This document shows, piece by piece, positions 12,608 to 53,254 of a stretch of DNA of 64,000 nucleotides. Numbering within the stretch: position 1 is the first letter of the stretch; the number at the start of each line of letters is the position of its first letter. This DNA is from a virus. The stretch spans positions 1-64,000 of IMG/VR virus record IMGVR_UViG_3300035698_011578; one strand, given 5' to 3'. The notes under the pieces were generated by a model. The model was given only the letters and a program-made list of their open reading frames with translations, was not told the origin of the DNA and searched no databases. Position numbers and translations under genes: made by a program.

Positions 12608-15600
12608 TTATTTTAGAAACCAGTTTTTACTTATGTTACTCTCAGTTCTATAGCTAGATAAATGTTTTCTTCTAATATTTAATACTTGTGTGTAATCAAC
12701 CGCTTCAAAATAATCTGATTTTTTAAGACAATTTTCGATATATGATTTAATTTCACCACTCAACTCTTTATTCATATATTCTTCTACTAATTCTTTAAAT
12801 TCATTCTTTTTGAAAATAGAAGTAGCATTAACAATAGTCATAACACAATTATGTACAACAATACCATTGGCTATATAGCTATTATCATCCTCAACTTCTA
12901 AATTATATGTCAATCCTTTATAGTTATATTTAACATAACTATCGAAGGTAGATGATATTTCAAAATCAGATATTCTTTTCAAACTAGAAGATGTCGGGCG
13001 TACATCATAAACAGTTACCCAATACTGATCTTTACACTTAACCTCATATCTGTGTCTTTTGTTTTTATTTATTAAACTATGTTTACCAATTGATAAAGCA
13101 ATATCTCGCATAGATAGTGCTAATTGTAAACTAGTAGTACACCCAATATTACAACTGGATCTATTATTTTTACTCCTTTTGAACCATCCATCACCGAGTA
13201 ACCAATATTCCAATGTATAGCTTAAATCATTGGCTAGACTATGACCATAAGTTGGGAATATTTTTTCCTTTGTTTCTGTATCATAACATTGAATTAATAA
13301 CTCGAATAGTGTTTTGTTATAAACTATTATAACACACCCATTATCACTACGACTTTCTTCAAATAAATTCAAACCTAAAGAATTAAGATAACCCTTATAC
13401 CAACCTATTAATTCATTTTGATTTTTATTAAAAGCCATTGATATTCTATATGTTGTATTATTAGGTTTATAACAATTACCATCCGCTAAAAATAAACCTA
13501 AAAATTTAGCAAATTCTTCATCAAATATAATTTGTTTTATTTTAATATTACTTTCTGCAAAATTTTTATCTCTTTCAAATAATTTATTATAATTAATAAC
13601 TTTTTGTGTATTAATATTATATTTTTCTATTATATTCACACACCTTTGTTTTTTTGATATTTTACCTGGTAAAACCCATTTCCTTATTGATAAATTATTA
13701 TAATTACCGGTTTTATAAACTTTTCTTGAATAATTATTAGATGCAATATAAAGCGGGTGATTGTATGTTAAATTTAGATTAGGTTGTCCTTTAAACTTCA
13801 CATCAAACATATCACCATCAAATTCCTTAATACAAATATTAGTAATTTTTTTATAGTTACCTAGATGTGTTAAGACGAAATCACCTATTTTTAAATCTTT
13901 TATTTTCCTATAACCAAATTCGGTTTTTATAAATGTATCTGGTAATAAACAATCATCATGACCAGCATCAGCAGCATATCTAACATTCCCGGCATTAGTT
14001 ACATGCTTAACAAATGTTGTTATTTCATCTATAGTCTCATGATTTGTTATGTGGAAGTTTTTCTTTGACATTAAATCTTGATAATCTTTTACTAATAGGT
14101 TTTTATTCTCACCTACTTTCAAACCAATTTTTTCTTCTTTTGCATCAACTCTGTGTTTATATCTAACAAAAACAGAAGAACCATAATTATTCTTACCATC
14201 AAATACGTGAGGCATCTCTGATAATAAAGTACCACCATAATTATTTAACTCTAGAACTATTTTTACATTATCTGGGTTAAAATATTCAAATGCTAAAATA
14301 TATAATAGTTCTGCTATTTGTTTTAAAGATGCAATATTACACCTATATATACCCACCTGTTCTAAAGTAAAGAAATCGACTATTGAATCATAATTATCTT
14401 TTTGTTGTTCAATCGTCTCAATCGATTTGTGACCAAGTTTAAATATATTTATAATCGAATAATCCTGACCTAACCCTTCGGATAAATCAACAGATAATAT
14501 AATTTTATAATCTTTCCTTCTCATTGGTAAGAAGGAATCATTATCTATCCATTTTAAGTCTTCATATGAGAATTTAAGCTTTTCAAACTCTCTCAATTCT
14601 TCATATATGTAATTTTCTTTTTGTTTTAATAGTCCATTAATTATACCCTCATTCAATAGTGATTTACTAGAGTTGATGAATCTTAACCCATACTCTTGAT
14701 TAAATGCGTCTTCACCACCAATATCTTTGATAGCTTCATCTTTCCAAGTAGTTACTTCTGATATTGTTTGTAATGAAATCTCTTCACCTTTATCATTTAA
14801 AATATTTAACGATCTAATATCCTCGTTACTACACTTATCATTATTATCTACATGTATCACATACTTCTGTTTATCAACATCCCATTTCATTTCAATTTCG
14901 GTATCTGACTCCCATTTCTTTTTAACTTCATCTAATACATACTCTTTAGTGATACCATTCTCATATAATCTATGATCGTTCAATCTTAAATAGGTTACAA
15001 ATCTACCAGGAACTTCGTGCCAGTAAACTCGCATCGCTTTGTAGTTGTTTTTTGCAGGGTCACCATCTGGTCTTTCAGCACTCATTAAAAGTTTATGAAA
15101 CAAGTTCATACCATTTGGGGTTGATGTTATAATAATCTTTGAGTTCTTTATCGCAGATACTGTTGGGAAAACAGCTGTATAATAAGGTTCGATTATATTT
15201 GATGGTATGTGTGCAAATTCATCTAAGTATAATAAGTCAATAGTAAAACCAATCGCAGGAGTCTTAGTTCTTGCAGATGTTTTAATTCTACAACCATTTT
15301 CAAAGGTTAGCGATTTTTGATTCCATGTTTTTATACCAGGTTTTAAAAAGAATGGTAATAAACTATAAATAGATTTGATTTTATCAACAATCTCAATAGT
15401 AGTATCACGAATATTCGCAACAATCATAACATTCTTATCATTATTGAATAATAATGTGTGTAACATGAATATTGAAGCAGATATTGTATTATGTGATAAT
15501 ATACCATTTGTGTATAATCTGTGATTATCATGATTTATTGTCGTATCAAACATAGAGGATTTAAATCTACTCTCTAATACCAATCTAACTTTTTCTAATC

Positions 15601-15931
15601 CATTTCTTGTTTGTATCTTCTGACCAATCTTTAAATCTTTAACAAAAACCTCATTTAAGTTTTCATCGAATATAATATGATTATCCGCACATTCTAATTT
15701 AAAGTTTTCAGTGATTAAATGATAGTGTGTATAAGGTTGTGTTATGTGTAAATTTGATATTGTTTCATAGCCAGTGTCGGTTTCGGCTTTAATATTTAAT
15801 AATGATATAGTATTTAATATTTTCTTAGAGATATCATCTTCATCTAAACTTAGATTTTTATATTCATAATTTTCTATTTTTTGAATAAAATATCTTAATA
15901 TTAAAGATAATTTTCTTTTTAAAAATTGCAT
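12608..15931 (-). CDS. terL: Terminase large subunit, C-terminal part (starts with split-intein C fragment, contains a second full intein)
   Basis: Walker B LLYLDEFAHI, ITSTPNG, FNQEY, SVDLSEGLGQDYS, GHDD. Confidence 0.93.
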   Translation of the reverse strand: MQFLKRKLSLILRYFIQKIENYEYKNLSLDEDDISKKILNTISLLNIKAETDTGYETISNLHITQPYTHYHLITENFKLECADNHIIFDENLNEVFVKDLKIGQKIQTRNGLEKVRLVLESRFKSSMFDTTINHDNHRLYTNGILSHNTISASIFMLHTLLFNNDKNVMIVANIRDTTIEIVDKIKSIYSLLPFFLKPGIKTWNQKSLTFENGCRIKTSARTKTPAIGFTIDLLYLDEFAHIPSNIIEPYYTAVFPTVSAIKNSKIIITSTPNGMNLFHKLLMSAERPDGDPAKNNYKAMRVYWHEVPGRFVTYLRLNDHRLYENGITKEYVLDEVKKKWESDTEIEMKWDVDKQKYVIHVDNNDKCSNEDIRSLNILNDKGEEISLQTISEVTTWKDEAIKDIGGEDAFNQEYGLRFINSSKSLLNEGIINGLLKQKENYIYEELREFEKLKFSYEDLKWIDNDSFLPMRRKDYKIILSVDLSEGLGQDYSIINIFKLGHKSIETIEQQKDNYDSIVDFFTLEQVGIYRCNIASLKQIAELLYILAFEYFNPDNVKIVLELNNYGGTLLSEMPHVFDGKNNYGSSVFVRYKHRVDAKEEKIGLKVGENKNLLVKDYQDLMSKKNFHITNHETIDEITTFVKHVTNAGNVRYAADAGHDDCLLPDTFIKTEFGYRKIKDLKIGDFVLTHLGNYKKITNICIKEFDGDMFDVKFKGQPNLNLTYNHPLYIASNNYSRKVYKTGNYNNLSIRKWVLPGKISKKQRCVNIIEKYNINTQKVINYNKLFERDKNFAESNIKIKQIIFDEEFAKFLGLFLADGNCYKPNNTTYRISMAFNKNQNELIGWYKGYLNSLGLNLFEESRSDNGCVIIVYNKTLFELLIQCYDTETKEKIFPTYGHSLANDLSYTLEYWLLGDGWFKRSKNNRSSCNIGCTTSLQLALSMRDIALSIGKHSLINKNKRHRYEVKCKDQYWVTVYDVRPTSSSLKRISDFEISSTFDSYVKYNYKGLTYNLEVEDDNSYIANGIVVHNCVMTIVNATSIFKKNEFKELVEEYMNKELSGEIKSYIENCLKKSDYFEAVDYTQVLNIRRKHLSSYRTESNISKNWFLK
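12848..13951 (-). mobile_element. Contiguous intein (368 aa) with LAGLIDADG endonuclease in the TerL nuclease domain
   Basis: GHDD|CLLPDT ... TYNHP ... FLGLFLADG ... LLGDG ... YIANGIVVHN|C. Confidence 0.93.
15488..15931 (-). mobile_element. Split intein C fragment (148 aa)
   Basis: Block B LECADNHIIF, VKDLKIGQKI, LYTNGILSHN|T; no N-terminal Cys. Confidence 0.9.
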
Positions 15932-33785: not shown

Positions 33786-33795
33786 AACCTATATA

Positions 33796-34059
33796 TTAAT
33801 TTAGTAATTCAGAAATTAAACTATCTCTTTTACATTCTAGTAGGTCAAATTCTGTTTTATAGTCAAAAAAATTCAATGTATAGTATTCACAATATGGAGT
33901 ACCATTCCCATAAATTATATTCTGAGTTAAAATTTTCTCATCAATTTTGAACCATAGATATAAATGTAATGGGTCTATATACCAATTTTCCCAATAACCA
34001 CCAACATATCTACGTATACACTCATAACCTGAAAAATAACGTATTAATATTTTCTTCAT
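33796..34059 (-). CDS. Hypothetical protein
   Basis: Ends KRDSLISELLN. Confidence 0.6.
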   Translation of the reverse strand: MKKILIRYFSGYECIRRYVGGYWENWYIDPLHLYLWFKIDEKILTQNIIYGNGTPYCEYYTLNFFDYKTEFDLLECKRDSLISELLN

Positions 34060-41500: not shown

Positions 41501-42358
41501 ATGAGTATTTTAAATTGGCAATTATTTCTGGAACATATAGGTGAAAACCCAATATCTGATATACAAGCATATATTGATGGCATGAATAAGACTATTAGTG
41601 ATAAGCTTTTCTTTTTGGATAAGATAGATTTTGATGTCATTGTCGACTTTGGTTGTGCCGATGGTACTCTATTAGAAAGTATAATGAAATCAAATCCCGA
41701 TATTAGAATAATTGGATATGATTTAGATGAGAGTATGTTATCACGAACAAGAAATAAATTAGGGTCTAGTGCCTTATTAACAAGTAATTGGGCTGATGTT
41801 ATAAATGAAATATCAAAATATAAAAGTCCATTATTAAATCTAAGTTCAGTTATACACGAAGTTTATTCATATTCACATGGACAAATTATTAAAAAATTCT
41901 GGGATGAACAAGTCTTTGGTGATCACTTCAAATGGATATCAATTAGAGATATGATTCCATCACTTAGCTTAGAAAGAGAAGAACAATCTTTATTTAAGAA
42001 TGATGTTGAAAAAGTTAGATTAAGTGCTGATAAATTCTATTTAGATTCTTTTGAAGACCACTGGGGACCTATAGATGTTAATTATAGAACATTTATGCAC
42101 TATCTCCTAAAATATAGATATAAGAAAAACTGGGATAGAGAAGTAAAAGAGAATTATTTACCTGTTTCATTAGAGACTGTTAAAAGTAAAATTCCTAATA
42201 GCTATGAAATTTTTTATGAAGAAGATTTTTTATTAGACTTTCTCAAGAAACAAGTTAAGATAGATTTCGATATCGACTTGACACATTCAACACATTTAAA
42301 AATGATTCTAGAAAATAAAAATAAACTTAATCAATCAGACGAGGTTACAATGTTTTAA
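41501..42358 (+). CDS. Class I SAM-dependent methyltransferase
   Basis: IVDFGCADG, IGYDLD, LSSVIHEVY. Confidence 0.85.
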   Translation: MSILNWQLFLEHIGENPISDIQAYIDGMNKTISDKLFFLDKIDFDVIVDFGCADGTLLESIMKSNPDIRIIGYDLDESMLSRTRNKLGSSALLTSNWADVINEISKYKSPLLNLSSVIHEVYSYSHGQIIKKFWDEQVFGDHFKWISIRDMIPSLSLEREEQSLFKNDVEKVRLSADKFYLDSFEDHWGPIDVNYRTFMHYLLKYRYKKNWDREVKENYLPVSLETVKSKIPNSYEIFYEEDFLLDFLKKQVKIDFDIDLTHSTHLKMILENKNKLNQSDEVTMF

Positions 42359-42368
42359 TATATAATAA

Positions 42369-44056: not shown

Positions 44057-45109
44057 TCATAAAGATAAGGAATACACCTCTTCTTTATCTAATATTAGTT
44101 TGAAGTTATACCCGTTCTCTTTGTATGACTTAATTTTATCCAACATATTCTGTTCATCATAAGTCCAAGAACTTTTTATTTCGACTAACTCATTTGTGTC
44201 TACTAAATAAAAGTCTGGTATAGAAGTTCTTTCGGTTTTTATATTTGTGTCGAAATATTGTATTCTTAAACTTTCAACTTCATATTTTATTTTACCATCA
44301 TCTAACAACTTAGCATATTCTAATTCATAAGAACTTCTTAACCAATATTTTTTACCTTCCCAACTAACATGATAGCAAGATTTATATGGATATATCGGTG
44401 TGTCAGAGAATGATTGTCTTCCTTTTTTAATAGCCAATCTACCACTCTCACTATTGTTTCTAGTTTTTATGTTTAGTCGTTTAAATAACATATATACTGT
44501 CTGGTAGTTAATATTATATTTTTCTCCTATTTCAACCATTGAATCAGTTTTATATTCATTTTTCAATTTCATAACTATTCTATAATACTCATCATAAAAA
44601 TATATAGTACCAACTTTTGTTAAATTAAAGCCAAATTTAATGAAGCTTTTTGATCCACCTTTATACCAAAATTTACACATATCTGGGTAAATACATTCTT
44701 CTTGACCACATATTTTGCAAATTTTCTTTTGACATTTACAACATTTACTATTATTTATACTAGCATTTAATTTTATTTTCATATCAACTCCACACTTTTT
44801 ACATTTAGATTGTTTAAAACAATCTCTATTCACAAAACTTTGAGAGTATTTTGATGAACAACTTTTACAACAACATTTCCTATACTTATCTTTATTATAC
44901 ATATTCTCGCTAAGTCCTAATTCATATATTTTATTACAATATAAACATGTAATTTCATAAATTTTACAATTTAACTTTTTTGTTTCACTTCTTTTCTCTT
45001 TTATTTTTAGTTTTTTAGGATTCATATCACAATTTGTGAGATGTGCACCAAATTGTTGATGTTTTACATATTCAATTTCACTATTACAATGTTTACATGT
45101 TTTTTTCAT
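44057..45109 (-). CDS. Cys-rich protein with C-terminal PD-(D/E)xK (TnsA-like) endonuclease; probable homing endonuclease
   Basis: Many CxxC; RSSYE..YE..Y..PDF..VEIKS. Confidence 0.75.
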   Translation of the reverse strand: MKKTCKHCNSEIEYVKHQQFGAHLTNCDMNPKKLKIKEKRSETKKLNCKIYEITCLYCNKIYELGLSENMYNKDKYRKCCCKSCSSKYSQSFVNRDCFKQSKCKKCGVDMKIKLNASINNSKCCKCQKKICKICGQEECIYPDMCKFWYKGGSKSFIKFGFNLTKVGTIYFYDEYYRIVMKLKNEYKTDSMVEIGEKYNINYQTVYMLFKRLNIKTRNNSESGRLAIKKGRQSFSDTPIYPYKSCYHVSWEGKKYWLRSSYELEYAKLLDDGKIKYEVESLRIQYFDTNIKTERTSIPDFYLVDTNELVEIKSSWTYDEQNMLDKIKSYKENGYNFKLILDKEEVYSLSL

Positions 45110-45177
45110 ACTTTATATATTAAAATATCAAAGCGTTAAAATTGAAACGAACCAGTATTTTTCGTTTTAGTTTAGAG

Positions 45178-45248
45178 AGCAGGATACCTTAATCGAAAAG
45201 GCGACTCAATATTGGAAGTATCGTATGTTACCACTACACCAATCCTGC
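45178..45248 (-). tRNA. tRNA-Gly(TCC)
   Basis: GCAGGAT/ATCCTGC acceptor, CGATA-CT TCC AA-TATTG, TTCGATT loop. Confidence 0.9.
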
Positions 45249-45256
45249 ATTTTTTG

Positions 45257-45328
45257 AGCAGTAAGGGAATTATGATATCCCGACCTCGACCTTGGCAAGG
45301 TCGCACTCTTCCTCTGAGCTATTACTGC
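45257..45328 (-). tRNA. tRNA-Gly(GCC), atypical T-loop
   Basis: GCAGTAA/TTACTGC acceptor, CGACC-TT GCC AA-GGTCG, T-loop ATCATAA. Confidence 0.88.
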
Positions 45329-45342
45329 AATTTATTGTGTTA

Positions 45343-45370
45343 TGGCGCAGAGAGGAATCGAACCTCAACA
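45343..45370 (-). pseudogene. tRNA 3'-half remnant
   Basis: GAGG-TTCGATT-CCTC-T-CTGCGCCA with no matching 5' acceptor strand. Confidence 0.55.
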
Positions 45371-45414
45371 CACTCACATTTCTTAGTAGAGAAGTCAAAA
45401 AACGAACCCTCTAG

Positions 45415-45490
45415 TGGAAGCGATGGGAATCGAACCCACCAAACAATCTGGTTGCAAACCAAATTCGCCAGCCTTGGAACATGCGCCCCC
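45415..45490 (-). tRNA. tRNA-Cys(GCA)
   Basis: GGGGGCG/CGCTTCC acceptor, TTTGG-TT GCA A-CCAGA, GGTTCGATTCC. Confidence 0.85.
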
Positions 45491-45500
45491 GTTTTATTAG

Positions 45501-45577
45501 TTGGTGAAGAGGGACTCGAACCCTCATGTGACCAATTACCATTTCAACACGATATAAGCGTGAGTGGATATTCACCA
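45501..45577 (-). tRNA. Non-canonical D-armless tRNA-like gene, anticodon TAT (Ile)
   Basis: TGGTGAA/TTCACCA acceptor, 7-8 nt linker, CACG-CT TAT AT-CGTG, ~21-nt extra region, canonical T-arm. Confidence 0.6.
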
Positions 45578-45579
45578 AT

Positions 45580-45617
45580 AAAAAAAAGCAGTCACTTTTT
45601 GAAAGTGACTGCTTTTT
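45580..45617 (-). terminator. Attenuator terminator upstream of the Ile/Cys/Gly/Gly tRNA operon
   Basis: AAAAAGCAGTCACTTT-CAA-AAAGTGACTGC-TTTTTTTT ending 2 nt before the first tRNA. Confidence 0.85.
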
Positions 45618-45640
45618 AATTTTTTAATATTTCTGAGATA

Positions 45641-45721
45641 TTAAATAACATAATTCAGCCACCCGAAGTTCCCTCCTGCTATACCGTTGCCGTTTGCCGC
45701 TATGTTATTAATTGTTCTCAT
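45641..45721 (-). CDS. Gly-rich attenuator leader peptide MRTINNIAANGNGIAGGNFGWLNYVI
   Basis: 26 codons incl. GGC, GGT, GGA, GGG, GGG; GGGTGGCTG complementary to the terminator 5' arm. Confidence 0.78.
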   Translation of the reverse strand: MRTINNIAANGNGIAGGNFGWLNYVI

Positions 45722-45799
45722 TGTTATAATTTTTCTTTTTACTGTTGTTATATATTAAAGTTTTATTCTCTCTTTTGTTGTTTTTCGTATTATCTTATG

Positions 45800-45831
45800 C
45801 AAATATAAGGCAAAAGTTTTAATTATCCAAA
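45800..45831 (-). promoter_or_regulatory. Bacteroidota-type promoter for the Gly tRNA operon (late TAATATATA box also at ~45749-45758)
   Basis: TTTG 45828-31, 20-nt spacer, TATATTTG 45800-07. Confidence 0.7.
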
Positions 45832-46803
45832 TTTATTTACACTTTTCTTCATAATTTTAAAATAATCTGATATAGTTTTTTCATAACTTTCCCTCTCTTT
45901 GTAATTCTCAACAATATAATTGTAGTTGTCTTTCAATTCTAATACACCGTTAATAACATTATCTATCCTAATACTAGGAACATTTTTCAAGAAACACATC
46001 CTATTAAAATCATTAATCATCACACCATTACCATTAACCAATTCAGGTAATCCACCAGATGATGTGTATAGAATAGGTAACTTACATTTAACTGCTTGAC
46101 AAGTTACTTTAGAACCAGCATCTCTAAAAAATGGTGAGATGAATGCATCACACATACTAATAAGATTACACATCTCTGTCCTATCATCTATATAACCATA
46201 TTTGATTATATTTTCAGGTAGTTCTTCAATATCACACTCACCTATCAGATAAAATAAATCATTGTCAAATATTTTTGACATGGCTATAATAGTTGATAAA
46301 CGTTTACCCTCTCTCTCCCAATTACTACAAGAACTAATCCATTTAAACACCTGATTAGATTCCTTTTTATCCGGATTATAATCTTCAGAATTATTTAATA
46401 TGACAATATCATTATCATATTCTACATCATAAAGTTCTTTAAGTGTGTTCTTTGAATAATTTGATATAAATATAACAAAATCTGATTGATAACCGGCATC
46501 TATATGTAACTTATTTTTATAATCGAATTCTTTTCTCCAATAAATACCATCCATTCTTTTAACTTTGGGTATATTATTCAATTCAGACCACTCTAATACT
46601 TCTTTAGAATAAAATGTGTTTGTTATAATAATATCTGCTAATTTGTAATCAGATACACGATTAAACCCATAATTACCTGCATACCTACACAAGTCGTGCA
46701 TTATATCATTTTCTTTAGGCCCGAAAGATTTGACACTATGAAGTGTATTACTTACTCTATTATTTGAGCAATCATAATAATTTTTAAGCATTTCTCTTTT
46801 CAT
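45823..46803 (-). CDS. Glycosyltransferase family 4 (GT-B)
   Basis: RMDG, IFISNYSK, K R, CDAFI, GSKV..QA..C.LPIL...GGLPELV. Confidence 0.85.
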   Translation of the reverse strand: MKREMLKNYYDCSNNRVSNTLHSVKSFGPKENDIMHDLCRYAGNYGFNRVSDYKLADIIITNTFYSKEVLEWSELNNIPKVKRMDGIYWRKEFDYKNKLHIDAGYQSDFVIFISNYSKNTLKELYDVEYDNDIVILNNSEDYNPDKKESNQVFKWISSCSNWEREGKRLSTIIAMSKIFDNDLFYLIGECDIEELPENIIKYGYIDDRTEMCNLISMCDAFISPFFRDAGSKVTCQAVKCKLPILYTSSGGLPELVNGNGVMINDFNRMCFLKNVPSIRIDNVINGVLELKDNYNYIVENYKERESYEKTISDYFKIMKKSVNKFG

Positions 46804-47557
46804 TTACCCACCAATCTGTTTTAATTTTCAACATAGTATCATCATCTTCGAAGTGTAATATCCAACCTTCTTTATTCTCTACATCCTTCTTCAATTCCAA
46901 TATATCAGTTAATGAGTATGAATATTCATTAACAATTGGAACCTCATCTATATCTTTAATATCTAAGTACTTACCAGTTTTATTACATCTCAATTTAAGA
47001 AGAACCATATCCTCATAATCATACTCAACATATAATTTCTCACCTATTAATTCGAATATTGGTTGTTTATTTTGTAATAAGCAAGATTCTATAAATTTAT
47101 AATATTTAGGATTTTCTAAATATTTATTACCAGAAACATTTGTTTTAGTATAGAATCCCTTTTTTGTCTGTGATGTAATACTACCATCAGGTAACATGAT
47201 GAAAGTTAATAAGAAACCATCTAACTTTTCAGTTATATTTTTAATTGGTTTATCTATAAATTTATCCAGTACACAATGTTTATATTGATCTAATTCCCAG
47301 AATTTGCTTAACATTAAATTTCTACGAAATAAAGAACCATCATCATTAAATGTGAAGGATAGCCCTTTTAGTTCAAGTGCATTAATATTTGGTTTATCTA
47401 TAATAGGTAATTTGAAATTATTATAAGTGGCATGTCTATAACCGAATATAGATAAATCATAACTATTTATTATGAAATTACTTTCATAGAAATACATCTT
47501 AGGATTAGATTCAATTATTTCTAAACATTCTGTATATTCTGGTAGGTAAAAACTCAT
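46784..47557 (-). CDS. RNA ligase 1 (T4 Rnl1-like)
   Basis: ELKGL, KFW, EKLDG, FEL, EGW, LKIKTDWW. Confidence 0.8.
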   Translation of the reverse strand: MSFYLPEYTECLEIIESNPKMYFYESNFIINSYDLSIFGYRHATYNNFKLPIIDKPNINALELKGLSFTFNDDGSLFRRNLMLSKFWELDQYKHCVLDKFIDKPIKNITEKLDGFLLTFIMLPDGSITSQTKKGFYTKTNVSGNKYLENPKYYKFIESCLLQNKQPIFELIGEKLYVEYDYEDMVLLKLRCNKTGKYLDIKDIDEVPIVNEYSYSLTDILELKKDVENKEGWILHFEDDDTMLKIKTDWWVNEKRNA

Positions 47558-47593
47558 TTATATTTTATTGATAAAAACTAAATTTGTTTACTA

Positions 47594-49057
47594 CTAAAAG
47601 TTGTAACCACCATAATTATCATCTGATATCTCGTCCTGACTATAGTATTCATTCGATCCTATACCTCTACTTAAATCATATAACTCGGTTATACTTAAAC
47701 CATAATTACCAAGATATTGATTTAATTCTTTTTCACCAATATAAGAATCATTTCTTCTGTGTGCCGTATTATATCTACCGCCATCATAAATTGTTAAACC
47801 AATTTTTCCCTCTACTGATGTTGCTGGCATTTCAGCATTAATTATTACTAATTGTATATTGTCATTACCAATATAATCCATCCAATATGATAGACTGTCT
47901 TTTATACACCAACTTGTATCACCTGCGAAATTAGATAGTGATTCATAAGAAAGAACTCTAACTACAATTAATTCACCGTCATCAAATACTAATTTTAACT
48001 GAGAATCATTATTGATGGTTGATCTAAGATTTTCTACTCCGGTATCACTAAATACAAATGATATTAATGAATCTATTAAGTCCTGTTGTGTTTTATATCT
48101 AGATACTTTTTTTAACCAAAACTTACTATAAAGTGCTAATTTTTCTTCATCATCTACTAAGGTCTTAATAGCTTCGATAAAATCTTCTTTTTTATTTAAC
48201 CCTCTTTTAATAGAACCAGGGTATTCATCTGAGAATATTTTAGCCATCTGTGCTTCTTCAATTATTGTTAAATCATCAGATAATTTCTCAAAATGTGTTG
48301 AATATGTCCTACCATCTTTAGCCGTGAATGATTGCTTTGTTCTGGACCTAGTCATATAATTAACTACACTGGTTTCTAATCTATCCAAGATATCATCATT
48401 ACTTTGTATGCGTTTATATAAATTCTTTATTCTCTGAAAAGGGATTTCCTCTATTTTATTAAAAAATGTAAATACACCTAAATATCCAGGATTATCTCTT
48501 AATAGATTTCTTAATCTAATATAAGTCTTATCAGTCTCATCCTCTTTTAAATGTCTTAAAATACGTCTAGCCTGATCTCTATTTTCATAAACATATGATT
48601 TATAATCACTTATCGTGAAATTCTCATTTATGAATTTTCTTACTCTTCCAAGCAATAGAAATTTATTATCCTCTAATAAAATATCACATTCCTTATCCAG
48701 TTGTTCTCTAGTCATTGAGTAATATGAACTAGGCATATCATATTTAAAGTTTAATTGCTCCTTAATATCATTTAACATATGATTATAAGTACGTTCTCTT
48801 TTTGGGTTACCATTTATTAGATTTCTAACAAAATTACCAAACCTATTATCACCCAATTCTAGGAATGCTTCATACACTAATTTTAAAAGATTATTAGATG
48901 AATATACTTCACTATTATCTAGGATAAAGTCATTTAATTCAAATACTACCTCATCTGTTATATTCAATTTTCTATATCTTTTTTCTAATAAAGAAGCCAA
49001 TGGTTTATTATTAGAGTAACATTCATCTATTTTCAATTTTAATAATTCTTCGTACAT
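47594..49057 (-). CDS. Hypothetical protein with TSWCI (PcfJ-like) C-terminal motif
   Basis: Likely start MYEELL at 49057. Confidence 0.65.
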   Translation of the reverse strand: MYEELLKLKIDECYSNNKPLASLLEKRYRKLNITDEVVFELNDFILDNSEVYSSNNLLKLVYEAFLELGDNRFGNFVRNLINGNPKRERTYNHMLNDIKEQLNFKYDMPSSYYSMTREQLDKECDILLEDNKFLLLGRVRKFINENFTISDYKSYVYENRDQARRILRHLKEDETDKTYIRLRNLLRDNPGYLGVFTFFNKIEEIPFQRIKNLYKRIQSNDDILDRLETSVVNYMTRSRTKQSFTAKDGRTYSTHFEKLSDDLTIIEEAQMAKIFSDEYPGSIKRGLNKKEDFIEAIKTLVDDEEKLALYSKFWLKKVSRYKTQQDLIDSLISFVFSDTGVENLRSTINNDSQLKLVFDDGELIVVRVLSYESLSNFAGDTSWCIKDSLSYWMDYIGNDNIQLVIINAEMPATSVEGKIGLTIYDGGRYNTAHRRNDSYIGEKELNQYLGNYGLSITELYDLSRGIGSNEYYSQDEISDDNYGGYNF

Positions 49058-49106
49058 AAAACAAAATTTATATTTAATACTATATATTAAAAAACAATTC
49101 CAAAAA

Positions 49107-49505
49107 ATGGATACGCTAATAAATGAACTGATTATTGATAAATATTTTGGCATCTATAATAGAAATGGATTTGAATATATTGTAAATAAAAACGAGAATA
49201 AAGATTTCAAGATTTATCTATTAGACTTTAATAGTGTTAAGAAAATGAATATTGAACTTGGTTATCTCTCCGTGAATAATATATTCAAGAATGCGTTATC
49301 TGAGTTAAAGAATGATTATACAATAGGTCGTGCTTTCTCCGGTGATGAGATATTTTTCCTAACTGAAAGATTAGATGATGATATAAATAAAATTGAAACC
49401 ATTTGTAATAAAAATGGATTATATTTTGAATACATTGAATTTATTAATGATGGCGAAGATGAGTTGGAGGTTCTTTTAGAAAAAATGATAGACGATTTTA
49501 AATGA
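49107..49505 (+). CDS. Standalone GGDEF-like domain protein
   Basis: D..FGIYNR, LLDFNSVKKMNIELGY, GRAFSGDEI. Confidence 0.7.
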   Translation: MDTLINELIIDKYFGIYNRNGFEYIVNKNENKDFKIYLLDFNSVKKMNIELGYLSVNNIFKNALSELKNDYTIGRAFSGDEIFFLTERLDDDINKIETICNKNGLYFEYIEFINDGEDELEVLLEKMIDDFK

Positions 49506-50131
49506 TAGACAAATTAGAAAATATTGGATTTTATACTCTATATAATGATAGAGCTAAAAATGTATCAGAATCATCACAGATGAAAAGATGCGAAATGATA
49601 ATTACTGAATACTGTAATTTTAATTGCCCGTATTGTCGTGGATTATCGGAAGAGGTTTACGGTGATCGCAAATTCAAACAATTATCATTAGATGAGATTA
49701 AGAAAAATATAGATTATTGGTGTGAGAATACCCCACTTGAGAATATAAGATTTTCTGGCGGTGAACCAACAATGCATAAAGATTTGAAAGAAATAGTAGA
49801 ATATGCAAAAGAAAGTGGTATAGAAAGAATAGCCGTATCAACAAATGGTTCTAAAGATTATGAGTTATATGATGAACTAATTGAAGCAGGTGTTAATGAT
49901 TTTTCAATATCATTAGATGCTTGTTGTGCCGAAGATGGTGATAAACTAGCTGGTGATAAAAAGGGCTCGTGGGAAATAGTAGTTGAAAATATTAGAAAAT
50001 TATCAAGTAGAACTTATGTTACTGTTGGTGTAGTATTATCACCTGAAAATGTAGATAAAACTTTAGAAACTATTAGATTTGCACACGACTTAGGTGTTTC
50101 TGATATAAGAATAATATCAGTGGCACAGTAA
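49502..50131 (+). CDS. Radical SAM protein, N-terminal part
   Basis: CNFNCPYC, FSGGEPT, STNG, ISLD; ends abruptly IRIISVAQ*. Confidence 0.88.
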   Translation: MIDKLENIGFYTLYNDRAKNVSESSQMKRCEMIITEYCNFNCPYCRGLSEEVYGDRKFKQLSLDEIKKNIDYWCENTPLENIRFSGGEPTMHKDLKEIVEYAKESGIERIAVSTNGSKDYELYDELIEAGVNDFSISLDACCAEDGDKLAGDKKGSWEIVVENIRKLSSRTYVTVGVVLSPENVDKTLETIRFAHDLGVSDIRIISVAQ

Positions 50132-50163
50132 CTTTTTTAATATATAAAATAAAAAGTTTTAAA

Positions 50164-51018
50164 ATGTTAGAGAGTAAATTAGGTATTTATGCTATAATCA
50201 ATATTATAAATGGTAAAAAATATATCGGTGGTACATCAAATTTAAGAATTAGAAAAAGCGCACATTTCAGAGAATTATCAAAAGGTATACATCATTGTAA
50301 TCATTTACAAAAATCATATAATAAATATGGTGTTGATAATTTCAAATGGGTAATAATTGAATATCTTGAAGAATATGAGAATAGAGAGGTTTTGAAAAAA
50401 AATCTTTTAGAAAAAGAACAACATTGGATCGATAAGCATATCAATGATAAAGAGCTATTATATAATACTTGTTTGGTGGCTGGTAGTTGTTTAGGTATTA
50501 AATTAAGTAATGTTCATAAAAGAAAAATTAGTGAAGCCATGATGGGTGAAAATAACCCATGTTATGGTAAGAAATATACTGATGAGGAGAAGGAAATATT
50601 AAGACAATATTCTTTAAATATGTCTGATGAAGCTAGACAAAAAATAAGCGAATCTAGTAAAGGAAATAAATATAGACTTGGTTCAAAACACTCAGAAGAA
50701 ACTAAAAAAAAGATAAGTGAGTCAAATAAAGGCAAACATGGTGGTAAGAGATCAGAAGAAACTAAGAAAAAAATTAGCGAAGCCAGTAAAGGTAGAATTT
50801 TTTCAGAAGAAACTCTTAAAAAGAAAAGCGATTCAATGAAAGGTAAAAACACAGATCCAGATAAAGTTAGAGCAAATAAAACATTTAAGAAACTGAAAAA
50901 AATATTTAAAACTGAAAAATGTATTACACAAAAAGATTTAACCAAAGCTTCTGGTATGTCACTATCAACAATTAAAAAATACTGGAAGCATATTAAAAAC
51001 AATGAAATTAATTATTAA
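50164..51018 (+). CDS. GIY-YIG homing endonuclease with NUMOD3-type repeats
   Basis: GIYAIIN..NGKKYIG, R...H, LQ...NKYG, EQ, YN; HSEETKKKISE repeats. Confidence 0.92.
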   Translation: MLESKLGIYAIINIINGKKYIGGTSNLRIRKSAHFRELSKGIHHCNHLQKSYNKYGVDNFKWVIIEYLEEYENREVLKKNLLEKEQHWIDKHINDKELLYNTCLVAGSCLGIKLSNVHKRKISEAMMGENNPCYGKKYTDEEKEILRQYSLNMSDEARQKISESSKGNKYRLGSKHSEETKKKISESNKGKHGGKRSEETKKKISEASKGRIFSEETLKKKSDSMKGKNTDPDKVRANKTFKKLKKIFKTEKCITQKDLTKASGMSLSTIKKYWKHIKNNEINY

Positions 51019-51021
51019 ATT

Positions 51022-51411
51022 ATGGAAAAAGAACAAATTGAAGAAATAATGAGGGTGAAAATATCTCAAATTGAACAAGAAATATTAGATGCACACCCAA
51101 TATTGGCTTATCGGGTTAAAAATATATTAGAAGGTAAATCAGTTAGAGGTATACAAGATGATGATTCTGAAAAATGTACTTTAGTTTTAGATGATAGTGT
51201 AATCGCAGGTGATTATCATTACCCATGTGTTATTTATATGAGAGAAGGTGGAGAACCAATTGGTAAGGTTAGTGGTGATATGAGAGAAGAAAGAGCTGAG
51301 TGGTTTAACAATCATAACACACATATAGATAAAATCTGTAGTAAAAACTGCTTAGATATCTGCATAGATTATAACAACAAATGCGAATCATATAAAAATG
51401 AGACTATTTAA
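51022..51411 (+). CDS. Radical SAM protein, C-terminal Cys-rich (SPASM/twitch-like) part
   Basis: C..LVLDD..YPC..PIG ... ICSKNCLDIC..YN. Confidence 0.7.
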   Translation: MEKEQIEEIMRVKISQIEQEILDAHPILAYRVKNILEGKSVRGIQDDDSEKCTLVLDDSVIAGDYHYPCVIYMREGGEPIGKVSGDMREERAEWFNNHNTHIDKICSKNCLDICIDYNNKCESYKNETI

Positions 51412-51832
51412 AAAGGAGTGTGAGAGAAAATTTCTTGTAAAAGAATTACCAAGTGATTTCAATGATTATGATAAAGAAGATGTCCATCAATACTATCCGA
51501 TTGTAAGTAAATATTTCTGCGTTAGAGTAAGGAAGTATAGCGAGACCAGAAAGTATTTGGATATCAAATTTGGATCAGGTAAAATAAAATTTAAGATTGG
51601 GTTAAGAATTAATTTTTTTCAGACAAATAAAAAGTGCCTAGTTAAAACCAGACACAAAAAGAGATTTAATAATCTATTAATAGTAATTGATATTTTCGAA
51701 AGTGAGTTAAGATTAGTTGAGATAGAATCCTCTGATTGTTCAATAATAGATAATTATAAACTACCAGAATGGTTTGGAGAAGAAGTAACTAATGATAAAA
51801 AATATAGAAACCGATATTTAATCAAAAAGTAG
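51398..51832 (+). CDS. CYTH domain protein
   Basis: ECERKFLV, RVR, K, KTR, IDIF, VEIE, PEWFGEEVT.D..Y.N. Confidence 0.85.
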   Translation: MRLFKKECERKFLVKELPSDFNDYDKEDVHQYYPIVSKYFCVRVRKYSETRKYLDIKFGSGKIKFKIGLRINFFQTNKKCLVKTRHKKRFNNLLIVIDIFESELRLVEIESSDCSIIDNYKLPEWFGEEVTNDKKYRNRYLIKK

Positions 51833-52540
51833 TTTTGCAATATCTTCGCCTAGTAATCTTTCTAACAACTCATCGATGTCAGTTGACATATCATTATCAT
51901 ACCTAAATAGATATAAAGAATCCTCTATACCATCTAAATTTAATTTGAAAATATAATAGAGAAATATATTTTGTGACATTAAAACAATTTCCGGATTAGT
52001 TTTCAATACCGTTTTATAATCAGAACCAAATATATCTTTAGTGTATATCTCTGGATAAAAATCACGCATTATGTAATTGTAAATATTACTACCAACTAAT
52101 AATTCTGTTTCTCCGAATAGTTTTGTTAGTTTTTCTATTCTAGAAACAACATTAATAACATTGCCTAAGTATGTGAATGTTCTACCATCTCGTAACATCT
52201 CTATTGTTTCACCACAATCGACACCAATACCAAATGAAATTTTCTCATCAAATTCTGCATTGAATTCATTAACCATTTTTGTTAACTTTTTATGTAGTAA
52301 GATTGAGAATGCATAAGCATGTTTTGAATGATTAAGACCTTTAAATAGAAATACCATAGAATCACCTAAAGAATTGTACCAGTAATCTTTTGATATTTTA
52401 CTAGCAATACTAATGTGTGCTTCATAAAAATCACTTATGAAATTTATAAAAGAATCATTATCCTTTTCTTGAAATCTCTCAAATGTTCCTGTGAAATTTC
52501 TGATATCTGATATCACTATGGCTGATTTAATTTTCTTCAT
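51818..52540 (-). CDS. Class III adenylate/guanylate cyclase domain protein
   Basis: SDIRNFT, LGDS, GIGV..G, YLGNVINVVSRIE. Confidence 0.85.
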   Translation of the reverse strand: MKKIKSAIVISDIRNFTGTFERFQEKDNDSFINFISDFYEAHISIASKISKDYWYNSLGDSMVFLFKGLNHSKHAYAFSILLHKKLTKMVNEFNAEFDEKISFGIGVDCGETIEMLRDGRTFTYLGNVINVVSRIEKLTKLFGETELLVGSNIYNYIMRDFYPEIYTKDIFGSDYKTVLKTNPEIVLMSQNIFLYYIFKLNLDGIEDSLYLFRYDNDMSTDIDELLERLLGEDIAKLLFD

Positions 52541-52630
52541 CTATATTATAATTTTAACTATATGCAAATATACTAAAAATTTCAATTACATATCAATTTT
52601 TAGTATATTATTTTTAGTTTATTATGTTTG

Positions 52631-52711
52631 TGGGTAAAGAGAGATTCGAACTCACAAACCCGAAGGCCACGGGGTTACAACCCGCTAGGCAACCAACTGC
52701 CCAATTTACCC
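52631..52711 (-). tRNA. tRNA-Tyr(GTA) copy 2
   Basis: GGGTAAA/TTTACCC, GCGGG-TT GTA AC-CCCGT, long variable arm. Confidence 0.88.
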
Positions 52712-52720
52712 AATTTTGAG

Positions 52721-52788
52721 AAGCACATAGGGGAATCGAACCCCCGTTTACTGAAAATCTGTCGTCCTAACCACTAGACGAATGCGCC
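52721..52788 (-). tRNA. tRNA-Glu(TTC), apparently damaged (about 4-nt deletion in the 3' anticodon stem)
   Basis: GGCGCAT/ATGTGCT, GTCTAGTGGTTAGGAC D-arm, ACAGA-TT TTC A-GT. Confidence 0.75.
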
Positions 52789-52795
52789 ATTTTTG

Positions 52796-52878
52796 TGGGC
52801 CGGGAGGGATTCGAACCCCCGAACTCGAAAGAGAGATGTTTTACAGACACCGTGCTTTAACCTCTTGCATACCGACCC
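52796..52878 (-). tRNA. tRNA-Tyr(GTA) copy 1
   Basis: GGGTCGG/CCGGCCC, GGTGT-CT GTA AA-ACATC, long variable arm. Confidence 0.92.
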
Positions 52879-52891
52879 AGTTTTTTATAAC

Positions 52892-52929
52892 AAAAAAAAC
52901 CAATCTAACATTTATGTCAGATTGGTTTT
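52892..52929 (-). terminator. Attenuator terminator upstream of the Tyr/Glu/Tyr tRNA operon
   Basis: AAAACCAATCTGACA-TAAA-TGTTAGATTGG-TTTTTTTT. Confidence 0.85.
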
Positions 52930-52953
52930 AAATTTCTATATAATTAAACACAG

Positions 52954-53019
52954 CTATCTATCTGACAAAATTTTCATTTTCTCTTCATAATAATAAGCTA
53001 TGTTTGTTATTGTTGTCAT
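52954..53019 (-). CDS. Tyr/Glu attenuator leader peptide MTTITNIAYYYEEKMKILSDR
   Basis: TAT TAT TAT GAA GAG at codons 9-13; TGTCAGAT complementary to the terminator 5' arm. Confidence 0.82.
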   Translation of the reverse strand: MTTITNIAYYYEEKMKILSDR

Positions 53020-53060
53020 TGTCTTTATTGTTTCTTTATTGTTTCTTTCTAATTCTTTTA

Positions 53061-53092
53061 CAAATATAAGGAAGATATTTTAAACCACCAAA
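53061..53092 (-). promoter_or_regulatory. Bacteroidota-type promoter for the Tyr/Glu tRNA operon
   Basis: TTTG 53089-92, 20-nt spacer, TATATTTG 53061-68. Confidence 0.72.
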
Positions 53093-53114
53093 TATATTTT
53101 CATTTTTCTTTTTG

Positions 53115-53186
53115 TAGCGGGGACAGGACTCGAACCTGCGACCTCCGGGTTATGAGCCCGACGAGCTGCCTCTGCTCTACCCCGCA
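53115..53186 (-). tRNA. Initiator tRNA-fMet(CAT)
   Basis: 1:72 mismatch, TCGGG-CT CAT AA-CCCGG (three G-C pairs); late TAATATATA box directly upstream. Confidence 0.92.
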
Positions 53187-53254
53187 ATATTGTATTTCTA
53201 TATATTAAAAAGTTGGTCTCCCTTTTACAAAAGTAGTAAAAATTTATGAGAATA

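Follow-up and report, generated by a model that had tools for sequence, protein, structure and literature searches.

A family of putative leader-peptide attenuators upstream of tRNA operons in a huge-phage contig

Introduction

The principle of leader-peptide attenuation is summarised in PMC1183508. In the enterobacterial attenuators trpL, hisL, pheL, leuL, thrL and ilvL, regulatory codons are clustered in a short open reading frame (ORF), an antiterminator and an intrinsic terminator are competing structures, and the position of the ribosome sets the switch. A comparable arrangement was found upstream of tRNA genes in the first 64 kb (hereinafter the window, i.e., the whole stretch of DNA analysed) of the 95,476-bp IMG/VR viral contig IMGVR_UViG_3300035698_011578. 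Two short ORFs of the window, L1 (45641–45721, minus strand) and L2 (52954–53019, minus strand), probably encode the leader peptides of transcription attenuators controlled by the ribosome, with phage tRNA operons as their targets, and belong to a paralogous family built on one cassette. This reading draws on the anatomy of the units, the match between codons and downstream tRNAs, conservation, covariation of the antiterminators and a modelled switch point.

The phage units share with the enterobacterial attenuators the short ORF with clustered codons and the competition between antiterminator and terminator, the dependence on ribosome position being modelled in this case; in untranslated RNA, the antiterminator of many of them also appears to be sequestered by a 5′ ‘region 1’. 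Unlike the enterobacterial attenuators, they would act on genes for tRNAs instead of biosynthetic enzymes, and the product itself would then be the molecule sensed. They are also phage-encoded, form a whole paralogous set on a common chassis in one genome, and cover up to eight isotypes per leader, whereas thrL and ilvL cover two or three. The two groups are not similar in sequence or by Rfam: among the Rfam amino-acid leaders, Thr_leader, His_leader, Trp_leader and Leu_leader gave no match at the gathering threshold, and the only leader match, to Thr_leader, reached 22.7 bits against a threshold of 55 and was confined to the terminator hairpin. A leader ORF, clustered cognate codons, an intrinsic terminator and an alternative antiterminator (weak in the unit L4) are all present, and the units would work like the leader families of amino-acid operons, yet they are not members of them.

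Attenuation of a component of the translation apparatus by a leader peptide is represented by the pheM leader of Escherichia coli pheST, where Phe-codon attenuation of an aminoacyl-tRNA synthetase responds to charged tRNA-Phe. In this respect pheM resembles the phage units, but it controls a synthetase rather than tRNA genes and is a single bacterial unit, not a modular family. T-box elements also sense tRNA status through a terminator/antiterminator switch upstream of translation-related genes; they differ in that no ribosome takes part and uncharged tRNA is bound directly, via a specifier codon and the T-box sequence. These elements are absent here: no Rfam match to the T-box was obtained in the whole window or in the region 52600–53200 at the gathering threshold, or in the region 45100–45800 at E ≤ 1.

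The trn operon of Anabaena sp. PCC 7120 is an inducible long tRNA array (PMC8421152) with the repressor TrcR (PMC10272220). In the available text of these reports, an accessory tRNA set is silent and is induced when translation is impaired, which is the likeness to the phage operons, but its control is described as a global transcriptional response with a repressor, and neither codon-specific leader peptides nor specificity for individual operons figure there. On the basis of that text, the stress-induced array of Anabaena (PMC8421152) is the nearest published idea, controlled differently. A full-text literature search found leader-peptide attenuation described only for amino-acid and related operons and none for tRNA genes; no multi-copy modular family of leader-peptide attenuators was described there either.

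Leader ORFs and their control codons

Analysis of the 95-kb contig showed the presence of four units, for Ile/Ala/Gly (L1), Tyr/Glu (L2), Asn/Leu/Arg/Val/Cys/Thr (L3) and Gln/Pro/Asp (L4), each with the order promoter, short ORF, antiterminator, intrinsic terminator, tRNA genes. L1 (class C) consists of 26 codons and a stop codon and reads MRTINNIAANGNGIAGGNFGWLNYVI; L2 (class B) consists of 21 codons and a stop codon and reads MTTITNIAYYYEEKMKILSDR. The units L3 and L4 are located outside the window, both on the plus strand. L3 (class D, 66087) has an Asn-rich ORF, also with Leu, Arg, Thr, Val, Cys and Ile codons, and a terminator, behind which the tRNA array Asn, Asn, Leu, Arg, Leu, Val, Cys, Val, ?, Thr, Thr, Arg, Leu is located. 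The ORF of L4 (74786) contains QPQVDQDP, and the array behind its terminator is Asp, Gln, Asp, Pro, Asp, Pro, Gln.

The control codons of L1 are ATA GCG GCA. GGC. GGT ATA GCA GGA GGG. They correspond one to one to the downstream anticodons UAU (ATA), UGC (GCG/GCA), GCC (GGC/GGT) and UCC (GGA/GGG), and Ile, Ala and Gly account for 12 of 25 residues against a background of 0.176 (p = 5e-4). In L2 the control codons are TAT TAT TAT GAA GAG (YYYEE), upstream of tRNAs of the Tyr and Glu types. A preliminary description of this DNA had proposed that the two leaders diverge into amino-acid-specific control codons, and the Ala/Gly/Ile(ATA)-rich L1 and the YYYEE of L2 do match their downstream tRNAs.

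Comparison was carried out in eight genomes: this contig, the uncultured huge phages LR745206.1 (634,780 bp) and LR756502.1 (642,428 bp) from GenBank, and five IMG/VR contigs of 262–508 kb; the relatives were reached via conserved terminator patterns. The orthologues of L2 in the six other genomes where it was found all have Y/E runs before Tyr/Glu tRNAs. A detector based on a terminator, an upstream ORF and a same-strand downstream tRNA revealed 45 leaders in the eight genomes, all with cognate-rich cores; three Gln leaders, mis-assigned by its longest-ORF rule, were added by inspection. About 50 further units were found in seven distant huge-phage genomes and other IMG/VR contigs.

Tabulation of codon enrichment against downstream genes, suggested as a check in the preliminary description, gave the true leader-to-operon assignment as the best of all permutations in three genomes (1/24, 1/120 and 1/24). 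For cognate enrichment over 13 leaders, binomial p ranged from 0.14 down to 4e-6 per leader and was 1e-20 when combined by Fisher's method, a pooled value that overstates the evidence because orthologous leaders are not independent. The independent evidence is provided by the retuned operons and by the within-genome permutations.

In the relatives, tRNAs are grouped as on this contig. At least seven leader classes were found in the seven other huge-phage genomes, and in each the middle codons match the operon: His/Phe/Lys/Trp (leader ..THKHFSKSxKWFS..), Ser/Arg (..SKSSSRSS..), Tyr/Glu, Ile/Gly/Ala, Asn/Leu/Val/Thr/Ile/Arg(/Cys/Met), Pro/Asp(/Gln) and Gln (QQQQQ), with five poly-Gln leaders located before Gln tRNAs. 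Merged or rearranged operons carry correspondingly rewritten putative leaders. The merged Glu/Tyr/Gly/Ile/Ala operon of genome G001 has a merged leader (L119), the leader of the Cys-Val-Leu-Leu operon (L069) contains ..LVLVLCLLL..C.C, that of the Pro-Cys-Phe-Thr-Gln operon (L091) contains ..FQHTQFTQFPTCPEC.., and that of the Leu/Phe operon (L098) contains ..FSLSLSFLSLSL... As many as eight isotypes are represented in one leader. Orthologous leaders have synonymous differences and retain frame and length.

Terminators, antiterminators and the modelled switch

The L1 intrinsic terminator (45575–45617, minus strand; stem region 45617–45583) has a 16-bp stem, a 3-nt loop and T8, and the L2 terminator (52888–52929, minus strand; stem region 52929–52896) a 15-bp stem, a 4-nt loop and T8. 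Both are conserved with compensatory changes, which for L1 were detected in the consensus fold. The stems had been described as unrelated in sequence, but they share the core CAGTC/AATCTGAC, and in the relatives the terminators of both classes, B and C, start with ACCCAGTC. The terminator start in the relatives is ACCCAGT in classes B, C and E, and AACCC[AT][GC] in 27 of 45 units.

The L1 antiterminator strand CGGGTGGCTGA (45655–45665, minus strand), which contains GTGGCTG, pairs with the terminator 5′ arm GCAGTCAC; in L2 the strand TTGTCAGATA (52959–52968, minus strand) of the antiterminator segment TGTCAGAT pairs with the arm ATCTGACA. The segments of L1, L2 and L3 lie near the 3′ end of the ORF. 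Compared with shuffled sequences, the duplex is stronger in L1 (−12.4 kcal/mol vs. −7.2 ± 2.0, p about 0.02), in L2 (−11.1 kcal/mol vs. −5.7 ± 1.9, p about 0.014) and in L3 (−16.0 kcal/mol, p about 0.002). Among seven orthologues of each class, 96% of cells are paired in class C, with two compensatory pairs (24–42% in slid controls), and 98% in class B, with four compensatory pairs (9–33%). The peptide encoded over the antiterminator segment is not conserved, whereas the RNA pairing is kept.

The effect of ribosome position was modelled by folding the nascent RNA of the 45 leaders with an assumed ribosome footprint of 30 nt. A ribosome placed on the control codons left 0.73 of the terminator 5′ arm sequestered, compared with 0.42 for a ribosome on the stop codon, 0.49 for RNA free of ribosomes and 0.41 for shuffled upstream sequence. 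In the modelled per-codon profiles, a sharp drop directly follows YYYEE for L2 and ..NGNGI for L1; in L4 the QPQVDQDP stretch alone is permissive. The response of the model to ribosome position is the behaviour of a classical attenuator.

Shared N-terminal scaffold

Both ORFs start with acaATG and encode MRTINNIA (L1) and MTTITNIA (L2), as given in the preliminary description. The pattern ATGNNNACNATHNNNAAYATH (M.TI.NI) occurs twice in the window, solely at L1 and L2 and in both cases before a terminator and tRNAs, and nowhere else in the 95-kb contig; dinucleotide shuffles give an expectation of 0.05, and none of 100 shuffles reached two. The random recurrence of the pattern in intergenic DNA, named at the outset as evidence against a scaffold, was not seen in this contig.

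A position-specific profile of residues 2–8, built from 41 leaders of the seven other genomes, ranked L2 first and L1 second among 1739 ATG-initiated ORFs of the contig. With a profile restricted to leaders of other classes in other genomes, L1 (scaffold codons 2–8, R T I N N I A, 45698–45718, minus strand) ranked 2nd, L2 (T T I T N I A, 52996–53016, minus strand) 5th, L3 73rd and L4 165th. At the level of sequence, the N-terminal likeness of the leaders across classes and genomes is real, with the degenerate consensus M-[KRTN]-[TN]-[ILMF]-[NT]-x-N-[IM]. Likeness between units reaches well past the first eight codons, since the four units can be aligned over the full 125 nt preceding the ATG, with 81–83% identity among L1, L3 and L4 and 62–70% between L2 and these three; the aligned region contains a TTTG-N20-TAnnTTTG promoter-like site.

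High identity of the L1, L3 and L4 promoters within one genome suggests recent copying or homogenisation, and the units could be real attenuators whose scaffold likeness reflects recent duplication or gene conversion, i.e., ancestry without function. The absence of covariation in the scaffold helix considered below fits such an origin. However, different classes retain the scaffold in phages with a structural-protein identity of only 35–40%, and class-specific promoter and terminator features are orthologous between phages, so that the classes are old. In addition, the choice of codons is biased beyond genome usage: codons starting with A (ANN) make up 75% of scaffolds vs. 48% of ordinary N-termini, ACA accounts for 79% vs. 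46% of Thr codons, and A at −3 is present in 78% of leaders vs. 52%. According to PMC6847099, A at −3 enhances initiation in Bacteroidetes lacking Shine–Dalgarno (SD) sequences.

Predicted pairing of the scaffold with the 3′ end of the leader also exceeds that of shuffled sequences (0.57 vs. 0.37 of scaffold bases paired; in 41 of 45 leaders), the partners being located near the stop codon. Complementarity AACATA(G):(C)TATGTT was found in 7/7 class C and 5/7 class B leaders, where AACATA(G) encodes N-I-A/S and (C)TATGTT encodes N-Y-V or falls just past the stop codon. In L1, AATAACATA (45709–45701) is complementary to TATGTTATT (45652–45644) at the ORF 3′ end; in the minimum free energy (MFE) fold of L2, AAACATAGCT (53005–52996) pairs with AGCTGTGTTT (52955–52946) around the stop codon. 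Taken with the codon bias, this makes ancestry alone an improbable account of the scaffold.

A purely compositional origin of the shared N-terminus, in a genome of 28% G+C where short ORFs and N-termini are rich in Lys, Asn, Ile and Thr, is considerably less probable still. The scaffold residues are indeed those with the most A/T-rich codons, and the ranks of L3 and L4 on the cross-class profile are moderate. However, two copies against 0.05 expected, both before terminators and tRNAs, exceed what composition predicts; ordinary ORF N-termini of the genome score −13 ± 6.5 (maximum 2.0) on the cross-genome profile, versus 12–14 for L1 and L2, which retain their 2nd and 5th ranks with the profile of other classes and genomes; and the promoter regions are homologous as well. 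The search for acaATG + M.TI.NIA in the whole of IMG/VR gave 13 matches, of which ten are unrelated ORFs, as a compositional origin would have it, and three are leaders directly before terminators and cognate tRNAs. The motif search proposed in the preliminary description succeeded for both matches in the window, which precede terminators and tRNAs, but not across IMG/VR, with leaders at 3/13. The exact motif is strongly enriched among leaders, yet it is too narrow and not diagnostic alone; the degenerate profile performs better at recognising candidate leaders. The proposal of a reusable chassis retuned for each operon is borne out by the four units, the at least seven classes in the relatives, the rewritten leaders and the transfer of the scaffold across classes.

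Evaluation of the attenuation model

Sensing of tRNA without translation (by T-box-like anticodon pairing), or functional peptides followed by terminators as mere insulators, is the least probable of the alternatives and quite unlikely: leader translation is so far deduced from sequence and T-box riboswitches prove that direct mRNA–tRNA sensing exists, but no T-box or other Rfam family was found at the leaders or in the window, the cognate triplets share a single frame that opens with a conserved ATG (A at −3) and closes with a stop codon, orthologues show synonymous changes and the same frame and length, up to eight isotypes per leader could not be read by one specifier loop, and the RNA pairing over the antiterminator is conserved in place of the C-terminal peptide.

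A number of observations weigh against ribosome-mediated attenuation or limit its support, in addition to the dependence among orthologous leaders. The cores contain non-cognate codons (three AAC in L1, Lys codons in L2), the LR745206 leader of class D retains a Cys codon although its operon lacks tRNA-Cys, and two gated tRNAs of the window are structurally aberrant. The scaffold helix is nearly invariant and hence without support from covariation. The folding models approximate the RNA at equilibrium and assume a 30-nt footprint, and the last control codons of L1 (GCA GGA GGG) are located just beyond the modelled switch point. In class D, to which L3 belongs, a ribosome at the stop codon fails to mask the antiterminator, and masking is achieved only by a ribosome in transit. 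For L4, the simple antiterminator duplex is not significant (−3.9 kcal/mol), modelled sequestration in the stalled state is only 0.45–0.60, and an HNH-type ORF separates the terminator from its tRNAs.

Promoters and the TTAATATATA box

The promoter of L1 (45800–45831, minus strand) consists of TTTG, 20 nt and TATATTTG, a −33/−7 layout that we take to be of Bacteroidota type on the basis of the published consensus; the promoter of L2 (53061–53092, minus strand) has the same TTTG, 20-nt interval and TATATTTG. The sequence GTAAAAGAATT after the L2 promoter is also present in the class B leader region of LR745206. A scan for sigma-70 sites of E. coli type gave 64 sites vs. 62.5 expected and is uninformative in this A/T-rich region.

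The interval between promoter and leader of L1 contains a TTAATATATA box (45749–45758, minus strand), a general motif near genes, of which the 95 kb contain 38 copies, almost all located 4–29 nt before an ORF ATG. The box often ends only 4–7 nt before the ATG (window positions 45114–45123, 42355–42364 and 33790–33799), and if it is a −10-like element, such mRNAs would be leaderless or nearly leaderless. Three of the four tRNA leaders combine the box with the upstream TTTG/TAnnTTTG promoter and could thus be transcribed from two promoters.

Putatively gated tRNA genes and other tRNA-like sequences

The L1-gated operon (45178–45577, minus strand), annotated with ARAGORN and Rfam, contains a tRNA without a D arm and with the anticodon UAU (45501–45577), tRNA Ala-UGC (45414–45488), Gly-GCC (45257–45328) and Gly-UCC (45178–45248), all on the minus strand, and the relatives carry the same Ile(UAU)/Gly/Gly/Ala operon. 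The tRNA-like gene 45501–45577 has normal acceptor and T arms, nearly no D arm and an 18-nt extra arm; it was missed by ARAGORN, and its Rfam score of 29.8 bits is barely above the threshold. A similar gene with the anticodon GAU is apparently located at positions 67598–67689 of the contig. Right after tRNA-Ala, the minus strand at 45330–45413 contains a remnant T arm and acceptor 3′ half (..GAGGTTCGATTCCTC..TGCGCCA), whose acceptor strand suits the 5′ end of tRNA-Ala better than the 3′ end of tRNA-Ala itself; either duplication of a 3′ half or disruption of a gene could account for it.

The L2-gated operon (52631–52878, minus strand) is represented by two tRNA Tyr-GUA genes (52796–52878 and 52631–52711) and, between them, a Glu-type tRNA with a shortened anticodon arm (52721–52788), all on the minus strand; alternating Glu(UUC)/Tyr(GUA) genes are located at this place in the relatives. 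The Glu-type gene scores 45.3 bits, and its anticodon arm is 4 nt short and contains UUUUC without a 7-nt loop. Possibly the gene is a pseudogene, or else its tRNA is an unusual one; the relatives have normal Glu(UUC) genes at this place.

In the tRNA arrays outside the window, ORFs resembling HNH-type homing endonucleases (with Cys/His pairs) are inserted at positions 66544–67240 and approximately 75006–75688 of the contig (plus strand), each with its own TTAATATATA box. A conserved tRNA with a long variable arm and a 6- or 8-nt anticodon loop (CTTTAA/T) was found at 67847–67930 (plus strand), as well as at the loci L116 and L015; its ARAGORN assignment is ‘???(tt)’, Lys or stop. It might read UUA or UUU, and a strong ochre suppressor seems unlikely because TAA is the main stop codon (89 of 107 ORFs). 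At 88361–88700 (plus strand), a Bacteroidota-type promoter leads straight into tRNA-Ser(GCU) with neither a leader ORF nor a terminator, so that some tRNA blocks are not attenuator-gated; this tRNA has an intron-like insert and is adjoined by further odd tRNA-like genes.

Initiator tRNA

A gene of initiator-type tRNA-Met(CAU), with a U1:U72 mismatch and GGG/CCC in the anticodon stem, is located upstream of the L2 promoter (53114–53186, minus strand) without a leader or terminator. It had been described as having a late-promoter box directly upstream and no leader or terminator. The box (53208–53199, 12 nt upstream) is present, with no ORF or terminator in between, but the ‘late’ label is not supported; TTAATATATA is the general motif with 38 copies. 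In five of the eight genomes initiator-type tRNA-Met is located 18–163 nt upstream of the Tyr/Glu leader, before the attenuator and hence outside terminator control. This placement agrees with only elongator tRNAs being gateable, as a matter of consistency and not as a test. In two relatives (L135 and L138; G004 and G005), the tRNA ends only 18–20 nt before the ATG of the Tyr/Glu leader, and its processing may create the 5′ end of the leader mRNA.

Source contig and relatives

Completeness of the contig was estimated by CheckV as 13%, which indicates a very large source phage. The G+C content in the window is 26–31%, and 24–25 tRNA genes are encoded on the contig. In a search of sequencing runs, near-identical DNA was confined to salt-lake metagenome runs, all of them DNA runs, and no RNA run was listed. 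Genes of the window encode a T4-type large terminase with an intein, a tail-sheath-like protein and ribonucleotide reductase; the terminase gene (12608–15931, minus strand; Terminase_6N) contains intein/Hint and LAGLIDADG-like segments. LR745206.1 and LR756502.1 are the nearest GenBank relatives, with 35–40% amino-acid identity to a structural protein of 774 residues encoded in the window.

No match to the exact 32-nt promoter pattern was found in IMG/VR, nor any relative there of the glycosyltransferase adjoining the L1 unit, and megablast of 10 kb against GenBank phages gave the initiator tRNA as the sole match. The standard genetic code (code 11) fits, with TAA, TAG and TGA used as stops in 89, 10 and 8 of 107 ORFs, and the TAG stop of L2 is retained under it. 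Recoding of stop codons was rejected: coding density would rise from 78% to only 83% with TAG or TGA as sense, and TAA as sense gives absurd results.

An ORF weakly similar to T4 RNA ligase 1 (46784–47557, minus strand; 26.8 bits, under the Pfam cutoff of 28.3) is separated from the L1 promoter, approximately 1 kb downstream, by a glycosyltransferase-like ORF (45823–46803). If truly a ligase, its product would suit a theme of tRNA repair and replacement.

Discussion

The cassette of the putative attenuators would begin with a Bacteroidota-type promoter and an A-rich, SD-less start region with A at −3, continue with an N-terminal scaffold of approximately eight codons, mostly ANN, and a swappable block of control codons read by the downstream tRNAs, and end with the antiterminator strand, the stop codon, an A/T spacer of 22–36 nt, the intrinsic terminator and the tRNA genes. 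We infer from sequence that the ORF is translated and that its translation is coupled to transcription. With scarce matching charged tRNA, decoding of the control codons would be slow, the stalled ribosome would leave the antiterminator free to pair with the terminator 5′ arm, and RNA polymerase would read through into the tRNA genes. With fast decoding, the ribosome would be over the antiterminator or parked on it, so that the terminator forms and no extra tRNA is made. The signal would presumably be tRNA supply, affected, e.g., by host tRNA cleavage or codon-usage mismatch, and not amino-acid supply.

Three factors may act jointly on the shared scaffold, namely, descent of the units from one ancestor via duplication, the requirement for an unstructured, A-rich initiation region for SD-independent start, and the role of its 3′ half, AACAUAG, as a helix strand with the leader 3′ end CUAUGUU (N-Y-V). 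In untranslated RNA, this closing helix would help to keep the antiterminator off the terminator, like the classical ‘region 1’.

A broader possibility, put forward tentatively, is that huge phages infecting SD-less (Bacteroidota-type) hosts are equipped with a sensor cassette of standardised, plug-in design, and that the five to eight copies per genome form a network specific to individual isoacceptors. The promoter, the A-rich scaffold doubling as the 5′ strand of the closing helix, and the ACCC-based terminator would be constant, and the codon block with its matching antiterminator/terminator core alone would be exchanged. Such a network would gauge decoding speed for nearly every codon family in the infected cell and replace limiting tRNAs only, e.g., after attack by a host anticodon nuclease or under codon-usage mismatch, while the initiator tRNA, which is not sensed by elongation, would stay constitutive.

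For annotation, the combination of the N-terminal profile, a terminator and tRNAs locates the units reliably. Codon-specific sensors could be designed on the natural, pre-validated model of this common chassis and its swappable codon blocks, and the natural retunings, with Tyr/Glu, Gly/Ala/Ile, Gln, Ser/Arg, Cys/Val/Leu and Pro/Cys/Phe/Thr/Gln blocks, make the rules of specificity testable. If the proposed mechanism is true, decoding speed would feed back directly on tRNA supply, which would account for the ability of giant phages with dozens of tRNA genes to avoid needless synthesis and may be an answer to tRNA-targeting host defences.

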